Below are positions 8,810-44,854 of a stretch of DNA of 57,215 bases, piece after piece. How positions within the stretch are numbered: the stretch's first letter is position 1; every line of letters starts with the position of its first letter. The notes beneath the pieces are model-generated. The model ran no database searches. It worked only from the letters and a program-made list of their open reading frames with translations, and was not told the origin of the DNA. This stretch comes from a virus. Its lineage: Duplodnaviria > Caudoviricetes. The position numbers and the translations under genes are program-made. The stretch spans positions 1 to 57,215 of the IMG/VR virus record IMGVR_UViG_3300037167_000012, one strand, 5' to 3'.

Positions 8810-10098
8810 AGGACGCCAAGGATGTCAAAGCGCTGTGCGTGGACACGGGAATTTTCCCTCATATTGCCCGCAGACTGGCAAGGGAATTTGACACCGTCTG
8901 GTATTGGACTCCGTGGGAATCCGCATTTCCAAGACTCAAGGACTCAGTCATTGGTGACGGCTACCCCGACATCATCGCCTGCGAATCCATCGAGGAGGTG
9001 AAGGCCGAATGCGACCTGTTCGTGTTCCCCGACATCGGCTATTCCGACCTGCAAGAGGAGCTGGTGAAGCAGGGCAAGGCCGTCTGGGGCTGCCGCCGGG
9101 GGGATGAGCTGGAGGCTCGGCGCGGGAAGTTTCTGGAAGTCCTCGGCACCACCAACCTGCCTGTTCCTAAGTTCAAGAAGGTAATGGGCATCACCAGTCT
9201 GAAGCTGTTCCTGAAGGACAAGGAAGACCAGTACATCAAGGTCTCCACCTATCGGGGCGATTTTGAGACCACTCATTTCCGAAGCATGGCCGCCGACGAA
9301 TCCGTGCTGGACAAATGGGCCGTCACGCTGGGGCCGCTCCGGGAATACATGAACTTCTTCGTGTTCGAGCCGATTGACACGGAAATCGAGGACGGGATTG
9401 ATTCGTGGTGCATTGACGGCCAGTGGCCCGAAACCATCATCCACGGGATGGAGTGCAAGGACTCCGCCTACATCGGCGCGTTCCAGAAGCTGGCCGATTG
9501 CCCTGAGGAAATCCGCGTCATCAACGAGGAGTTCGGCCCCATCCTGAAGAAGTACGGCTATCGCGGCGCGTTCTCCACTGAGGGCCGCATTACCAAGGAC
9601 GGCGAGACCTATTTCATTGACCCGACCTGCCGCTTCCCCAGCCCGCCCAGCCAGTGCATGTGCGAGATGATTGGAAACCTCGGAGAGGTCATCTGGAAAG
9701 GTGCCAATGGCGAGGTGATTGAGCCGGAACAGTCCTTCAAGTTCGGAGCGCAGGCCATCTTCAAGGTTGACCGGGACGAGTGGGGCGTGTTTGAAATCCA
9801 GGACGAACTCGACCAATGGGTTAAGATAGCCTTCTCTTGCAAGGTGGACGGCAAGATATGTGTTCCCCCTGACCAGACCGGCGTTGAGGAAATCGGCTGG
9901 GTCGTGGGCGTGGGCGACACGATGGAAGAAGCCATCGAGCACCTGCGCGAGAACAAGGACGCCATGCCCGACGGCTGCAACGTCCAGTTCTCATCCATCG
10001 CCGACCTGCTCAAGGAAATCCAGACGGCTGAGGAATTGGGCATGAGCTTCACAGAAGGCAAGATTCCCGGCCCTGAGACGGTGGTTTCCAAAGAGTAA
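8806..10098 (+). CDS. ATP-grasp ligase, distantly PurD (GAR synthetase)-like
   Basis: DLFVFPD, VWGCRRGDELE, LPVP, YIK, YRGAFSTE...YFIDPTCRFPSP (metal-binding/RF motif), VVGVGDTMEEA. Confidence 0.72.
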   Translation: MKDAKDVKALCVDTGIFPHIARRLAREFDTVWYWTPWESAFPRLKDSVIGDGYPDIIACESIEEVKAECDLFVFPDIGYSDLQEELVKQGKAVWGCRRGDELEARRGKFLEVLGTTNLPVPKFKKVMGITSLKLFLKDKEDQYIKVSTYRGDFETTHFRSMAADESVLDKWAVTLGPLREYMNFFVFEPIDTEIEDGIDSWCIDGQWPETIIHGMECKDSAYIGAFQKLADCPEEIRVINEEFGPILKKYGYRGAFSTEGRITKDGETYFIDPTCRFPSPPSQCMCEMIGNLGEVIWKGANGEVIEPEQSFKFGAQAIFKVDRDEWGVFEIQDELDQWVKIAFSCKVDGKICVPPDQTGVEEIGWVVGVGDTMEEAIEHLRENKDAMPDGCNVQFSSIADLLKEIQTAEELGMSFTEGKIPGPETVVSKE

Positions 10099-10109
10099 CC
10101 AGTTATTCC

Positions 10110-10139
10110 TTGACAAACGGCCAATGGCGGCCTTATTGT
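10110..10139 (+). promoter_or_regulatory. Sigma70-type promoter upstream of the 43-aa ORF
   Basis: TTGACA 10110-10115, 18 bp, TATTGT 10134-10139, ATG 10149. Confidence 0.55.
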
Positions 10140-10148
10140 CTCGCCAGC

Positions 10149-10280
10149 ATGACAACCTGCGCCTACAACGGAACGATTGGAAGCTGTGGCTACCCACAGG
10201 CCAAGGTTGACCAGACGCCGAAATATGACAACGCCGTCCGCAAGGGTCGCAAGCGCCGGAAGAAAAGGAAACAGCCATGA
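10149..10280 (+). CDS. 43-aa peptide resembling the capsid N-terminus, with Arg/Lys tail
   Basis: Translated by hand: MTTCAYNGTIGSCGYPQAKVDQTPKYDNAVRKGRKRRKKRKQP; ATGA overlap with next ORF. Confidence 0.7.
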   Translation: MTTCAYNGTIGSCGYPQAKVDQTPKYDNAVRKGRKRRKKRKQP

Positions 10281-10456
10281 AAATCCAGCATCAGGAGCAC
10301 ACCATCGAGGAGGTCATTCGGTATTTCGTGGAGGGGTACAACCTTGAGCCGGGACAACGGGTGGCCAGCCATGAGTCAAACTATGACCCCCGCACCGGCA
10401 AAGTGTGGCTCAAGCTGGTCATCGAGGAACCTGACCTTGGAAAATCGGAGTCCTGA
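10277..10456 (+). CDS. Hypothetical 59-aa protein
   Basis: Hand-translated MKIQHQEHTIEEVIRYFVEG...; AAAGGA SD; ATGA overlap; fills the gap. Confidence 0.6.
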   Translation: MKIQHQEHTIEEVIRYFVEGYNLEPGQRVASHESNYDPRTGKVWLKLVIEEPDLGKSES

Positions 10457-10457
10457 C

Positions 10458-10658
10458 ATGAGCGAAGCCGTCCCAACATTGCCGGTGTACCAGAAGCCGG
10501 TCGAGCGCAAGCCAGCCGTGATTCCTGCGGCGGTGGCGGCATCCGTTCCCAAAACGCCCAACACGCTGAACCGGCTGATGAGCAGGATGCTCAAGCCGCA
10601 GATGAAACGCATTTCAAAACTTCAAACCGGAAAACAAAAGAAGCACAAGTTCTATTGA
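10458..10658 (+). CDS. Hypothetical basic protein
   Basis: ATG 1 nt after the previous stop, within ORF 10344..10658. Confidence 0.55.
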   Translation: MSEAVPTLPVYQKPVERKPAVIPAAVAASVPKTPNTLNRLMSRMLKPQMKRISKLQTGKQKKHKFY

Positions 10659-10660
10659 TT

Positions 10661-10990
10661 ATGGAAACCAAAACACCACTCGTATCACCACGGCCCATCA
10701 ACCCCACTCCAAAGCAGAGGTTCCTCGAAATGGGAACATGGGTATCAGCCCATCGCAAGATGACTGACAGCCCTGAATTCCAGAGGGCCATTGACTTCGC
10801 CGCCCAGCACTACGTCAGGTCGCTGCATGGAATCGCCCCCACTGACCTGACTCATCCAAACTTCATGGCCGCCAGCGCGATGAACTTCCAGCGCATTCAG
10901 GGGATGCAGGACTTCATCACCGTGCTGATGAACCTGTCTGAAGTTCCAACTCCCCGGACAGCCACCAAAAACGCCGACAACCTTGACTGA
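10661..10990 (+). CDS. Hypothetical protein (head module)
   Basis: Tightly packed ORF. Confidence 0.65.
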   Translation: METKTPLVSPRPINPTPKQRFLEMGTWVSAHRKMTDSPEFQRAIDFAAQHYVRSLHGIAPTDLTHPNFMAASAMNFQRIQGMQDFITVLMNLSEVPTPRTATKNADNLD

Positions 10991-10992
10991 TT

Positions 10993-11232
10993 ATGGCTCA
11001 ATACCGAAAGAAACCAGTAGTCATCGAGGCCGTTCAATGGACGGGAAACATTCAGGAAGTGTCTGCTTTTGCGGGCGAAAGCCTTGAGTCTCTAACTGGA
11101 GACACGCTCTGGATTAAAACACTTGAGGGAGGGCTTACGGCCCGTATGAACGACTGGATAATCAAGGGGGTTTGCAGGGAATTCTATCCCTGCAAACCAG
11201 ACATCTTTGAATCAACCTACGAGAAAGTCTGA
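10993..11232 (+). CDS. Conserved small phage protein (YRKKPVVIEA...YPCKPDIF family)
   Basis: Characteristic YRKKPVVIEAVQW, IKTLEG, DWIIKGV, FYPCKPDIFESTYE. Confidence 0.85.
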   Translation: MAQYRKKPVVIEAVQWTGNIQEVSAFAGESLESLTGDTLWIKTLEGGLTARMNDWIIKGVCREFYPCKPDIFESTYEKV

Positions 11233-11234
11233 TT

Positions 11235-12521
11235 ATGGCCGACGAACCATCCAGCGCAGCACCCGCCGCCGCAGCAGTTCCAGCAGCAGCCACTCCCGCC
11301 GCCGTGTCCAGTCCGGCACAGCCGCAGCGCCGGGAGATTAACGTCTCGGCAATACCGGCCCCAACTACGCCTATAACGCCTCCCAAGAAAGGCTCCGCGC
11401 GGGAGAAGATGCTGGAAAACCTGCGGGGCAAGGCCAAGCCCGAACCTGGCACCGCCGCCCCCGAACCGACTACTGCCGCAGCCACCGCTCCCGTTGAGGG
11501 CGATGAGCCGGAAGTCCCGGCAGAAGGCGACGAGCCAGCCGCTCCCGCCGAGGGCACCAAGCCAGCCGACAAGAAGAAGGTCAATCCCTGGAAGCTGGTG
11601 GACGAGTACAAGGCCAAGGTCAAGGAATACGAGGGCAAGATTGCTGAAGTCGAGAAGCGGGCCATCCCCGAATCCAAGTGGAAGGAGCAGCAGGAAACCC
11701 TCACCCAGCGCGAGGCCCGCCTCAAGGAACTGGAGGAGGAAATCCGATACGTCAACTACTCCAAGAGCGACGAGTTCAAGAATAAATACCAGAAGCCCTA
11801 CGACGACGCATGGAAGCGCGCAATGGGCGAACTCAAGGAGCTGACCATCGAGGCTGGCGATGGGAACACCCGCCCGGTTGAACCCAAGGACATTCTGGAC
11901 TTGGTCAACCTGCCCCTGCCAATGGCCCGCAAGGAGGCCGTGGAGAAGTTTGGCGAGTTCGCTGATGACGTGATGGCCCATCGCAAGGAGATTCGCAAGC
12001 TGTTCGACGAGCAATCCGCTGCGCTGGAGGAGGCCCGAACCAACGGCGAGGCGCGGGAGAAGGAAACCGCCGAGGCCCGCAAGAAGGAAGTCGGCGAAAT
12101 GACCGGCACCATCCGGGAACAATGGTCAAAGGCCAACGAGGACGCCGCCTCCCACCCCAAGTACGGCACCTACTTCAAGCCGGTTGAGGGCGATGAACAG
12201 GGCAACCAAAGGCTGGCCAAGGGATTTGAGCTGGCCGACCGCGCGTTCTCCGAGAACCCGCTGTCCAAGGGGCTTACCCCCGAACAGCGCACCGCCATCG
12301 TCCAGCGCCATGCCGCCGTCCGCAACCGCTGCGCCGCATTCGGCAGGCTGGTCTATATGAACGAAACGAAGGCTTCTGAAATCGCCGAGTTGAAGAAACA
12401 ACTGGCCGAATTCAACGGAGCCGAGCCGCCCGCTGATGGTGGTAGCGCAGCCCCGGCATCGCCTCCCGGAACCAAGGGCATGGCAGGCGTCCTTGAAGAC
12501 CTGAGAAAGAGGGCGAAATGA
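11235..12521 (+). CDS. Probable capsid scaffolding protein
   Basis: Pro/Ala/Glu-rich disordered N-terminus, long coiled coil, between portal and capsid. Confidence 0.65.
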   Translation: MADEPSSAAPAAAAVPAAATPAAVSSPAQPQRREINVSAIPAPTTPITPPKKGSAREKMLENLRGKAKPEPGTAAPEPTTAAATAPVEGDEPEVPAEGDEPAAPAEGTKPADKKKVNPWKLVDEYKAKVKEYEGKIAEVEKRAIPESKWKEQQETLTQREARLKELEEEIRYVNYSKSDEFKNKYQKPYDDAWKRAMGELKELTIEAGDGNTRPVEPKDILDLVNLPLPMARKEAVEKFGEFADDVMAHRKEIRKLFDEQSAALEEARTNGEAREKETAEARKKEVGEMTGTIREQWSKANEDAASHPKYGTYFKPVEGDEQGNQRLAKGFELADRAFSENPLSKGLTPEQRTAIVQRHAAVRNRCAAFGRLVYMNETKASEIAELKKQLAEFNGAEPPADGGSAAPASPPGTKGMAGVLEDLRKRAK

Positions 12522-42724: not shown

Positions 42725-42988
42725 TTATGAATGCAACATAACCTGTTGAACTTTTTGACCTGCTAATGTGGGCGATATTGTCCACCCGCCCCACGGAGTC
42801 CGATAGCTGCTGAACTGCATTTGTGGGTGTCCTTTGAGTTTCACAATCACAACAGCGTCGGGGCTGATTTTGGGGCGGAACACGTTACTGTTCTCAGGAA
42901 TCAATTCAGCCGCAGCTTTGCGTTGGTAATACGCCGCAATCCTTTGCTGCTTCCTGTTTTTGTAACCACTTGAATGATAACGAGACAT
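42725..42988 (-). CDS. Hypothetical protein
   Basis: Stop 1 nt before helicase ATG. Confidence 0.6.
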   Translation of the reverse strand: MSRYHSSGYKNRKQQRIAAYYQRKAAAELIPENSNVFRPKISPDAVVIVKLKGHPQMQFSSYRTPWGGWTISPTLAGQKVQQVMLHS

Positions 42989-43026
42989 GCTAATTAGTTG
43001 ATTTTAGGTGATGGTTAATTGCTTTG

Positions 43027-43287
43027 TTAAGCCAAATACCAATAGACGCGCTGTTTCCGCTCCTTGTAGAGTCGGACGACCGACACGCGGCCAGCCTTGT
43101 TGCGGTTCGTGAATGAGTATTCAGACATTTCTGGCGTGTGAATTTTTACGTCGATATACCACCCATGATTCACAAGAGCAGATTGAACTTGCTCAAATGT
43201 TTTTCCACGCTTTTGGCCTAACAAGCGGTTGGAGCCAACGTCCACCGCGCCTTCAGTTTGTTGTTGAGTTGTTTGCATATTGTTCAC
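43027..43287 (-). CDS. Cassette 1 hypothetical protein
   Basis: Starts in attC1 loop; stop TAA is the TTA of the GTTAAGC core. Confidence 0.6.
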   Translation of the reverse strand: MNNMQTTQQQTEGAVDVGSNRLLGQKRGKTFEQVQSALVNHGWYIDVKIHTPEMSEYSFTNRNKAGRVSVVRLYKERKQRVYWYLA

Positions 43288-43332
43288 TTTCAGTTTTCCG
43301 GCGGTGGCCGTTGCTCACCCGCAGCGTTATCT
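43216..43332 (+). repeat. attC site 1 (117 bp)
   Basis: GCCTAAC-AAGCGGTTGGAGCCAACGTCCACCGC...GCGGTGGCCGTTGCTCACCCGCAGC-GTTATCT; two extra bases in left arm. Confidence 0.85.
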
Positions 43333-43643
43333 GGCTCAGGTTCCCATTTCATCGGGAGCGCCAAGCCATAGGACGCCAGCAGTATTTTCCCGCATTTATT
43401 GCAGGGGCACTCCACTTGCTGGTCATGCCTTCTGTTCATTTTGGAGAGGTAGCCCGTATGGTTACAAAATCGCTGTCGGAGCCAGATAACACCGCGCCGG
43501 AGCCAATCGGGCTTGCCCTTCCAGTTTGCGCGGCGGCTTCTATTGCGGTCATCACACTCGCACCAACCACACATGTCAGGCCCGGAGCCGGCCAGCCCTT
43601 GAAGCTCGATTCCGCAGCGTTTGCATTTCAGAGGTTCTATCAT
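43290..43643 (-). CDS. Cassette 2 Cys-rich hypothetical protein
   Basis: GAAAGGA SD, ATGA overlap, CxxC pairs. Confidence 0.65.
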   Translation of the reverse strand: MIEPLKCKRCGIELQGLAGSGPDMCGWCECDDRNRSRRANWKGKPDWLRRGVIWLRQRFCNHTGYLSKMNRRHDQQVECPCNKCGKILLASYGLALPMKWEPEPDNAAGEQRPPPEN

Positions 43644-43685
43644 TTGTTCCTTTCGACGCCCGATTGCTCAGCTTGGACGTTGGGC
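43484..43685 (+). repeat. attC site 2 (202 bp, long coding loop)
   Basis: AGATAAC-ACCGCGCCGGAGCCAATCGGGC...GCCCGATTGCTCAGCTTGGAC-GTTGGGC. Confidence 0.75.
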
Positions 43686-43966
43686 TGCTTTTCGCGATCT
43701 CGCAGTTTGTTGCCGCCTGCCACGCGATAGAACTTGTCGAGGTCGCGTTTTTCTTTCGGGTCTAGTGGTCTGCCAAAGACCCTCTCAAAAGTGCTTCGAG
43801 ATGCACCGCACCGCTCGCACACATCTCCACTCCATGAGTTGTAGTGGGTTACTCGGATGCGCCTGATTTTATGGATTCCAAGTTTGCAGAGCATTCGGGC
43901 GAGCAGCCCAACAAGCCCGCCGGAGCCAACATCGGTTGGCCGCTTCAGTTTTTCGATAGCATTCAT
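43640..43966 (-). CDS. Cassette 3 hypothetical protein (C-x4-H ... CxxC)
   Basis: GAAAGGAC SD and ATG lie inside attC3 loop; LCKLGIHK...CERCG. Confidence 0.65.
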   Translation of the reverse strand: MNAIEKLKRPTDVGSGGLVGLLARMLCKLGIHKIRRIRVTHYNSWSGDVCERCGASRSTFERVFGRPLDPKEKRDLDKFYRVAGGNKLRDREKQPNVQAEQSGVERNK

Positions 43967-44017
43967 TGTTAGTCCTTTCGTCATTAGTCCGATGTGGCTC
44001 ATCGGGCAGCGTTAGGC
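43906..44017 (+). repeat. attC site 3 (112 bp)
   Basis: GCCCAAC-AAGCCCGCCGGAGCCAACATCGG...CCGATGTGGCTCATCGGGCAGC-GTTAGGC. Confidence 0.88.
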
Positions 44018-44223
44018 GGCATGGCGTCGCTCATCGTTTTTCCGTCCGCTGTCAGGATAAGGAATGAGCCTTTGCACTCCTCGCCGTGATATTTATGATT
44101 CGTGACAACCAAGTTTGCGGTGTGCTTATTTTGCGCGACCGGCACTTGATTCTGGCACGCCGGACATATTGCCAGAGGCCGGTTATCTCTTTTTTTTCTT
44201 TCGTATCTCATAAAATGCCGCAT
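43999..44223 (-). CDS. Cassette 4 zinc-finger-like protein
   Basis: CPAC...H...CKGS; stop inside attC3 right arm. Confidence 0.6.
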   Translation of the reverse strand: MRHFMRYERKKRDNRPLAICPACQNQVPVAQNKHTANLVVTNHKYHGEECKGSFLILTADGKTMSDAMPPNAAR

Positions 44224-44328
44224 AACAAGTGCGTCGAGCCAATCCCGGTTGGCCGCTGCACTTTATTCGTTCAGGTTTCTGGTTGTTGTGTGTCGTGAGT
44301 CCGGGATGGCTCACGCACGACGTTAGAT
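44220..44328 (+). repeat. attC site 4 (109 bp)
   Basis: GCATAAC-AAGTG-CGTCGAGC-CAATCCCGG...CCGGGATG-GCTCACG-CACGAC-GTTAGAT; canonical 5/6-bp spacers and extrahelical C and A. Confidence 0.92.
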
Positions 44329-44544
44329 GCTTTCGAGTAGCGACAGATGGCTGGCGCGTTCTCGCATCAGGCCACAGTCGCAGGCTTCCGATTCGTTCGT
44401 GATTATTCCAAGCTTGCCGTTGGCGTTGGTCACTTTGGAGACGAAGCACCAGTCAAAGTGCCGTCCGTAGTTTTCGAGCGCGGAGTTTTTCGTTACCAGC
44501 GCGGCTCGCAGAGCTTCGATTTTTTGTTGTTCGTTCATACGCAT
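44323..44544 (-). CDS. Cassette 5 hypothetical protein
   Basis: H..WC...CDCG motif; start at attC5 R'', stop in attC4 R'. Confidence 0.6.
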   Translation of the reverse strand: MRMNEQQKIEALRAALVTKNSALENYGRHFDWCFVSKVTNANGKLGIITNESEACDCGLMRERASHLSLLESI

Positions 44545-44630
44545 CTAACCAATCGGTGCAGGCAACGGCGGGTTGCGCTGCGGGTTAATTCGGGCGTCAG
44601 GCTCCGCCGTGCCTGACCTCACTGTTAGCG
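44543..44630 (+). repeat. attC site 5 (88 bp)
   Basis: ATCTAAC-CAATC-GGTGCAGGCAACGGCGG...CCGCCGTGCCTGACC-TCACT-GTTAGCG. Confidence 0.88.
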
Positions 44631-44854
44631 GCCCGCATGTACCGCCTCAGCTTGGTGTTCTTGTAGATGGCCTTGCTGCCTTGATGCTTGCGGACTCTCG
44701 CAGAATTGGCCTTGGCGTGCTTCAGGCATCTGCCGCCAAACACAGATGGCTTGCCGCAGGTCATGCACAGTCCGGACTTGTTGTGCCTGAGTTGGCATTT
44801 TCTCTGCCGCGAGACTGGCAGGTCGGTGAACTCGTCAATGATTTTGGCTCTCAT
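44597..44854 (-). CDS. Zinc-finger-like protein; its 3' end is the array insertion point
   Basis: GLCMTCGK...CLKH; ATGA overlap; last 8 codons come from attC5. Confidence 0.7.
   Translation of the reverse strand: MRAKIIDEFTDLPVSRQRKCQLRHNKSGLCMTCGKPSVFGGRCLKHAKANSARVRKHQGSKAIYKNTKLRRYMRAANSEVRHGGA

Follow-up and report, generated by a model that had tools for sequence, protein, structure and literature searches.

At 57,215 bp and bounded by direct terminal repeats, the window analysed here is the complete IMG/VR record of an uncultured phage (IMGVR_UViG_3300037167_000012; Duplodnaviria, Caudoviricetes), and it carries a block of integron-type gene cassettes at the 3' end of a small minus-strand phage gene (gene 44854, at 44597-44854). 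An integron integrase (IntI) of the host probably joined the attC site of a cassette to a secondary G/TT site within this gene (the slash marks the point of exchange), leaving the cassettes between G43026 and T44625. This reading is built on the base-precise junctions, on the identity and family of the attC sites, and on a second, unrelated phage that shares one cassette and whose interrupted gene is restored by excision.

An earlier note on this DNA had proposed that joining G43026 to T44625 alters the end of gene 44854, and its arithmetic is reproduced: in-silico excision of 43027-44624 (1598 bp) changes the product from 85 to 88 amino acids (aa), and the rebuilt stop, a TAG at 42992-42990, leaves a gap of 1 nt to the next ATG at 42988-42986, as the note had claimed. 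The parts of the interrupted locus are these:

42989..43026, minus strand: 38-nt remnant, now intergenic, read as the former 3' end of gene 44854 (KAINHHLKSTN codons and stop); left half of the target, without attC structure
43026..43029, plus strand: left junction G/TTA; the G is phage, TTAAGC is cassette 1
44624..44627, plus strand: right junction G/TTA; the G is attC, TTAGCG is phage
44597..44854, minus strand: the phage gene in its present form, 85 aa, KIIDEFTDLP family; last 8 codons read from attC_e
42725..42988, minus strand: next phage gene downstream, 87 aa, without a family; the rebuilt stop is 1 nt from its ATG

At the left, G43026 is followed by TTAAGC, and at the right G44624 by TTAGCG; GTTA stands at both ends (43026-43029 and 44624-44627), so that any cut inside it gives an identical product. 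The right end of the insert is an exactly canonical G/TT crossover, the last attC reading CACTG/TTAGCG with bases of the phage gene past the G, and at the left end TT comes directly after a phage G in DNA without attC structure. Among the three frames across the remnant (42989-43026), only the restored one is open to the end. The earlier note also held that excision restores the tight packing of the surrounding genes, and close packing is indeed usual: 4-nt overlaps are common in this block and a 1-nt gap is also found between 42725..42988 and the helicase gene, but gaps of ~50 nt occur there too. We infer that the interrupted gene kept its body while an 11-residue tail was exchanged for the 8 residues read from the attC, and that it may still be working.

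The absence of an attC left arm at 43026, pointed out in the earlier note, is borne out by the flank itself. The stretch 42940-43032 has no fold (-3.8 kcal/mol, z +0.17), the left flank gives no match to our attC covariance model on the plus or the minus strand (E ≤ 10), and 42900-43030 shows no repeats. Nor does the flank have the marks of an attI, which adjoins intI and bears repeats that the integrase binds: intI is absent from the phage and repeats from the flank, and only TG/TTAG is common to candidate attI crossovers. The crossover at G43026/TT has instead the form of an attG-type target, 5'-G/WT-3' in DNA without attC or attI structure, and the layout of the two junctions is the product expected from a cassette attC recombining with a non-attC site at G/TT. 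A sigma-70-like promoter match (TTAACA, 18 nt, TAAAAT; 10/12) crosses the left junction at 43001-43030 of the minus strand, with the gene at 42988 downstream of it; its -35 hexamer is composed of cassette and phage bases, and it is a consensus match only.

Between the junctions lie the following cassettes, with their open reading frames (ORFs) and attC sites:

43027..43326, plus strand: cassette 1, 300 bp; ORF 43027-43287 (minus), stop TAA in the R' core
43216..43332, plus strand: attC_a, GCCTAAC...GTTATCT, 62.1 bits
43327..44011, plus strand: cassette 2, 685 bp; ORFs 43290-43643 (minus) and 43640-44002 (minus), weak matches to small phage protein families
43484..43625, plus strand: decayed attC-like stretch; AGATAAC fully complementary to the cassette start TTATCT at 43327
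43906..44017, plus strand: attC_c, GCCCAAC...GTTAGGC, 89.5 bits
44012..44322, plus strand: cassette 3, 311 bp; ORF 43999-44223 (minus), 74 aa, 13 nt beyond the cassette border
44220..44328, plus strand: attC_d, GCATAAC...GTTAGAT, 79.7 bits
44323..44624, plus strand: cassette 4, 302 bp; ORF 44323-44538/44544 (minus), 71-73 aa, stop TAA in the R' core
44543..44630, plus strand: attC_e, ATCTAAC...CACTG/TTAGCG, 59.7 bits; final six bases are phage DNA

All four attC sites have their top strand on the plus strand and share one layout, in which a 7-nt core ending in AAC and a 5-6-nt spacer lead into three successive stems, the first of 3 bp and separated from the second by a single bulged base, the second of 6 bp and separated from the third by a bulged A; then come a 40-65-nt loop, a bulge-free complementary arm, a 6-7-nt spacer and G/TT. 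AAC and GTT are invariant in the R'' and R' cores of all four, the outer bases being partly off consensus (RYYYAAC and G/TTRRRY). Folded as single-stranded DNA, three of the four form long bulged hairpins with R'' and R' paired (z -2.3 to -3.2); the minimum-energy fold of attC_d is an alternative structure, and its ends pair by eye. A covariance model and alignment made from these four sites and five bacterial (Verrucomicrobiota) sites recovers the four on the plus strand at 59.7-89.5 bits, while the best other match in the 57 kb, at 11.9 bits, is the reverse strand of one of them. In all nine aligned sites it is the 5' arm of the plus strand that holds the bulged bases. Pairing extends to 88.6% of the cells of this alignment, and compensatory change on both sides is seen in 10 of its 22 pairs, a result that none of 500 shuffles reaches and that is favoured by the derivation of the consensus structure from the same nine sequences; slid controls pair at 25-38%.

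An attC-site cluster that lacks an integron integrase (CALIN) is, in the definition of Cury et al. 2016, at least two attC sites near one another on a single strand and no intI in the vicinity, and the window holds four attC sites on one strand within 1.4 kb in a record with no match to the integron integrase model TIGR02249 at E ≤ 1 over its complete 57 kb. The cassette array of the earlier note consists of genuine integron-type cassettes, but only four of its attC sites are supported. The fifth, at 43484-43625, was rejected as a functional site: its 5' arm is convincing, but it has no fold (z +1.0) and no model match, and we take it to have decayed. Cassette 2 is probably two cassettes fused after this internal attC decayed. 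Cassette starts are complementary to their own R'' at 6 of 7 positions in cassettes 1 and 3 and at 7 of 7 in cassette 4 (TTAGAT against ATCTAAC), as expected of units that once circularised. Searches of Pfam and PHROGs gave no function for the five ORFs of the array, the only matches (DUF1660, phrog_2670, phrog_4188) being below threshold. ATGA stop/start overlaps (43999-44002 and 43640-43643) join three of the ORFs across cassette/attC borders, a 117-aa ORF spans the decayed attC, and the 74-aa ORF runs 13 nt past its cassette border, which suggests that the ORFs were remodelled after insertion.

A search of 5.8 billion proteins yielded three relatives of the cassette 4 protein, the closest of them on L074, a 68.6-kb IMG/VR viral contig that has only one DNA stretch in common with the window. 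This match (283 bp, 95.8% identity, window 44345-44627) spans the cassette 4 gene and attC_e and stops 3 nt past the G/TT; by eye, the rest of cassette 4 down to its TTAGATGC start is also there, with an indel. The shared cassette belongs to a 1667-bp array that interrupts an MT-A70 methylase gene, whose N-terminal part covers Pfam positions 1-72 and whose C-terminal part covers 89-172. Excision of 9921-11587 at the equivalent G/TT sites, the target reading TGG/TTACAT inside MT-A70, gives a 223-aa MT-A70 ORF in frame, and when this ORF is aligned to two intact methylases of phages, its halves meet at a single alignment column. Because the rebuilding of this gene restores MT-A70 and can be checked against its family, L074 validates the in-silico excision approach. 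The L074 copy of the cassette 4 gene has lost its stop and reads on to 89 aa, and at 10227-10246 of the same contig, read on the minus strand, nothing but a 5-nt spacer separates an R'' core from an R'-like core; stems and loop are missing, in what looks like an attC collapsed by deletion.

The attC family leads to the likely host. A 21-nt motif common to two of the window's attC sites was searched in 596 Gb of prokaryote genomes and gave 37 matches, about half of them expected by chance on our own estimate; five had the full attC context (loci L040, L053, L060, L061 and L063), all in Verrucomicrobiota metagenome-assembled genomes (MAGs), four in number. The covariance model finds arrays in these loci, for example eight matches in L061, all on one strand. 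Each of the four genomes codes for an integron integrase that scores 412-484 bits with TIGR02249 (curated cut-off 265), as does none of 14 control genomes, and at all four intI loci arrays of the window's attC family lie upstream of and divergent from intI, which identifies the window's plus strand as the top strand of attC. Relatives of the interrupted gene with 60-62% identity occur in Verrucomicrobiota MAGs as well. On these sequence affinities the host phylum is likely Verrucomicrobiota. Among the cassettes of these bacterial integrons, one in sense at L040 3229-4488 has a 419-aa product that belongs to the Pfam Beta-lactamase family (PF00144, 106.6 bits), and the next encodes an S-adenosylmethionine (SAM)-dependent methyltransferase.

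The same 21-nt motif marks five further IMG/VR loci, L083 to L087, with model-supported attC sites as follows:

L083: 7 attC sites
L084: 9 attC sites
L087: 5 attC sites; appears to overlap L084
L086: 4 attC sites
L085: 1 attC site

Copies of attC_d (window 44220-44328) occur in all five at 92-98% identity, the homology being confined to the attC while the cargo differs. This suggests one attC paired with many genes and resembles the homogeneous attC sites of chromosomal integrons. The L083 array adjoins ERF, PDDEXK and HNH genes, and arrays lie in the recombination/replication module in three phages; the borders of the L083 and L084 arrays are not readable by eye. Beside the nine-site array of L084, at 9658-10545 and co-directional with the cassette genes, is an ORF for an Xer-like tyrosine recombinase (43.5 bits to XerD), which is not an integron integrase.

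In the window, the cassette ORFs are all encoded on the minus strand, in antisense to the top strand of attC. Under a codon model for which 30 long window ORFs served as the training set, each of the five minus-strand ORFs is favoured, by 0.02-0.23 bits per codon. The plus-strand ORFs were rejected as the cassette genes, the model disfavouring all five alternatives in the array and the substitution pattern also running contrary: of the eight cassette 4 differences between the window and L074, seven are silent when read in the minus frame and seven are replacing when read in the plus frame. In attC_e, the two phages differ at four positions, three in the loop, one in the spacer and none in the stems. 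Elsewhere, a C-5 cytosine methylase (PF00145) in L074 and an N6/N4 methylase (PF01555) in L084 are antisense to attC, both above cut-off. In bacterial arrays of the same attC family, by contrast, Pfam matches above cut-off are found for 5 of 11 sense ORFs of at least 100 aa against 0 of 6 antisense ones, all five Pfam-supported ORFs thus being sense. By ORF length alone, the sense ORF is the longer in 16 of 19 bacterial cassettes and the antisense one in 13 of 19 viral cassettes; small cassettes are ambiguous for such strand calls, and a call from GC content at third codon positions (GC3) was too noisy and was not used. Unexpectedly, phage cassette genes are antisense to attC wherever their coding strand could be established, opposite to bacterial arrays, a feature that the earlier note did not mention. 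A role of attC top strands as terminators was considered as an explanation of the orientation bias and is not supported, a simple scan placing no terminator-like site at the attC inner hairpins.

We infer the following course of events. An integron integrase of the host would have taken the bottom strand of a cassette attC, in its folded form, and recombined it with a secondary site in double-stranded phage DNA, a G/TT 12 codons before the stop of the small gene, leaving integron cassettes, four now and probably five originally, between G43026 and T44625, each starting with TT and finishing with the G of its own attC, as at attI. Further cassettes, entering at resident attC sites or at the left junction, would probably have enlarged the array; the first to arrive may have been cassette 4, because it is individually mobile. 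Since the cassette genes are on the phage coding strand, antisense to the attC top strand, they would be transcribed together with the replication and recombination genes of the phage. Insertion by an integron integrase at a non-attC site, as the earlier note had it, is thus supported by the G/TT ends, by the intI and attC family of the likely host phylum, and by the L074 excision. That note left the choice between an attI-like and a plain secondary target; these analyses do not separate the two, and the best reading is a host IntI acting at a secondary G/TT site of attG-like type.

Several observations weigh against insertion by a host integrase at this site. The rebuilt reading frame is by itself modest evidence, since gaps of ~50 nt also occur between genes here, and over a length of 12 codons one of three frames is open. 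Cassette borders are crossed by two ORFs, and one attC has decayed, so the array has been reworked since insertion, and its genes do not lie on the attC top strand upstream of the attC as in ordinary cassettes. The cassette contents were not found at the DNA level in 401 sampled Verrucomicrobiota genomes, where only the attC arm was matched, in two. Searches with the flanks (megablast and blastn) found no empty site in GenBank phages, and searches with a left-flank 23-mer and three neighbouring proteins found no array-free relative in IMG/VR. The 5.8 billion proteins contained only two close relatives of gene 44854 (two candidates), both with the attC-derived tail.

No array-free relative of the gene came from those proteins, from Joint Genome Institute (JGI) metagenomes or from genome contigs. 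One of the two close relatives (P0002) is a 72-aa variant that lacks 13 internal residues and keeps the attC-derived tail. A further 29 more distant relatives (27 in JGI metagenomes, 2 on genome contigs) have variable tails and no synteny, only the 85-aa gene matching, and for both reasons they cannot judge the rebuilt tail. The cassette 1 protein occurs in identical copies on 41 contigs, the longest of 57,313 bp; this, with the junction tail in two further protein clusters, means that the array is not a chimera or an assembly artefact and that the insertion is fixed in what has been sampled. L016, L017 and L018 hold a relative of the interrupted gene that is 67% identical to it over residues 4-48 and is followed, ~1 kb downstream, by canonical sense cassettes with attC matches of 48.8 bits, as at L018 6074-7600; the contig is probably bacterial, because it also has a prepilin-type gene.

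Entry of the cassettes without an integron integrase, whether by illegitimate or microhomology joining at the common GTTA or by homologous exchange of the module with an array-bearing phage, is the rival that survives best and is improbable. Off-target homologous or illegitimate recombination was proposed for phage CALINs by Qi et al. 2023 (PMC9892861), RecT-like and exonuclease genes are encoded nearby by the phage, and its close relatives already have the junction, so that the event is not recent. Against this, both ends of the insert lie exactly at the G/TT that IntI would use, the left one being a cassette start and the right one an attC R', the independent L074 array does likewise and its excision is base-precise, and microhomology joining gives no reason why homology between the phages should stop at cassette borders. 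We give still less weight to the possibility that the present arrangement is original and the rebuilt ORF coincidental, the array having entered an old intergenic region or replaced other DNA, with its true left border elsewhere. In its favour, neither an empty site nor a homologue of the rebuilt tail is known, and no second copy of cassette 1 was found that would fix the left border by homology; but the last 8 codons of gene 44854 are attC sequence that is 95.8% identical in L074 beside a different gene, and the tail cannot therefore be ancestral, while the start of cassette 1, TTAAGC, complements its own R'' and the one frame open through the remnant ends 1 nt before an ATG. That the phage evolved the target as a functional attI-like landing site for cassette recruitment is least likely of all, for although the rebuilt TG/TTAG matches four candidate attI crossovers (picked by eye) beside Verrucomicrobiota intI, and at least five further viral loci bear arrays of this attC family, in three phages within the recombination/replication module, the likeness is only 6 nt long and inside coding sequence, the L074 target differs, intI and repeats are missing, and the bacterial attI positions are themselves only candidates.

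Beyond the single insertion, we tentatively suggest that phages of peat Verrucomicrobiota might keep a cassette pool of their own, with the gene antisense to attC and the recombinogenic bottom strand serving as the phage coding strand, in which cassettes would be made from phage genes (for example by a resident attC recombining with a nearby GTT) and moved between unrelated phages at GTT sites by the host integrase. If so, the integron machinery would be a route for phage-to-phage exchange of accessory genes such as DNA methylases, and would offer a view of how cassettes are born.

The phage genes around the array belong to a replication and recombination block at 39-52 kb, all on the minus strand, which includes:

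within 39-52 kb, minus strand: DNA helicase (phrog_16, E 3e-84)
within 39-52 kb, minus strand: exonuclease (phrog_69)
within 39-52 kb, minus strand: RecT-like annealing protein (phrog_148)

None of the seven large plus-strand ORFs tested (window 2623-28201, 428-847 aa) matches a PHROG at E ≤ 1e-5, and its structural module is therefore very divergent.

Two unrelated phages bear a legible footprint of insertion, and for one of the two there is a protein family against which the rebuilt gene can be checked. This supports the idea that phage DNA, whether infecting or resident, is acted on by host integron integrases and that cassettes can travel from cell to cell in phages, and the antisense orientation, with a recurrent attC beside varied cargo, bears on the open question of cassette formation. 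Phage attC clusters and attG insertion in the laboratory are already known; a natural case linking both with base-precise junctions was not found in the literature searched. Likewise, in the literature searched on integron attC with viral contigs or Verrucomicrobi (supplements not covered), we found no description of antisense phage cassette genes, of one attC recurring beside different cargo, or of a cassette shared between unrelated phages.

Sedentary chromosomal integrons, such as those with the Vibrio cholerae repeats, have homogeneous attC sites. The phage arrays resemble them in their long attC sites (88-117 bp here) and in having one sequence family across many cassettes, with attC_d recurring beside different cargo, and differ in being short, in lacking an integrase and an attI and cassette-promoter (Pc) platform, in lying inside phage operons, and in the opposite orientation of their genes. 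Another counterpart is the set of 17 CALINs reported in phages by Qi et al. 2023 (PMC9892861), who also showed recombination of phage attC sites with attI1: these too are attC arrays with cargo in phages without intI, and the cargo includes DNA methylases, as here in L074 and L084. The part of that report available to us describes no base-precise empty site and suggests illegitimate or homologous recombination, whereas the present arrays have G/TT junctions, a rebuildable empty site, a cassette common to unrelated phages, Verrucomicrobiota as the likely host phylum, and antisense genes. For the mechanism, a counterpart is described in the preprint of Loot et al. (10.1101/2022.09.11.507474), which gives the attG consensus as 5'-GWT-3' with cleavage after the G and proposes attG insertion as the origin of small CALINs and of single attC sites lacking integron integrases (SALINs). 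The target in the window is of the same kind, without attC or attI structure, and the insert likewise starts with TT and ends with the G of an attC; attG insertion was observed experimentally in the Escherichia coli chromosome with IntI1-3, whereas here it would have taken place in natural phage genomes, through an uncharacterised IntI and with several cassettes. A natural precedent, as cited in that preprint, is the aadB cassette at secondary sites in plasmids RSF1010 and pRAY, which also lies outside an integron and is expressed from a resident promoter, but is a single resistance cassette with a sense gene, carried on plasmids rather than in an array within phages.

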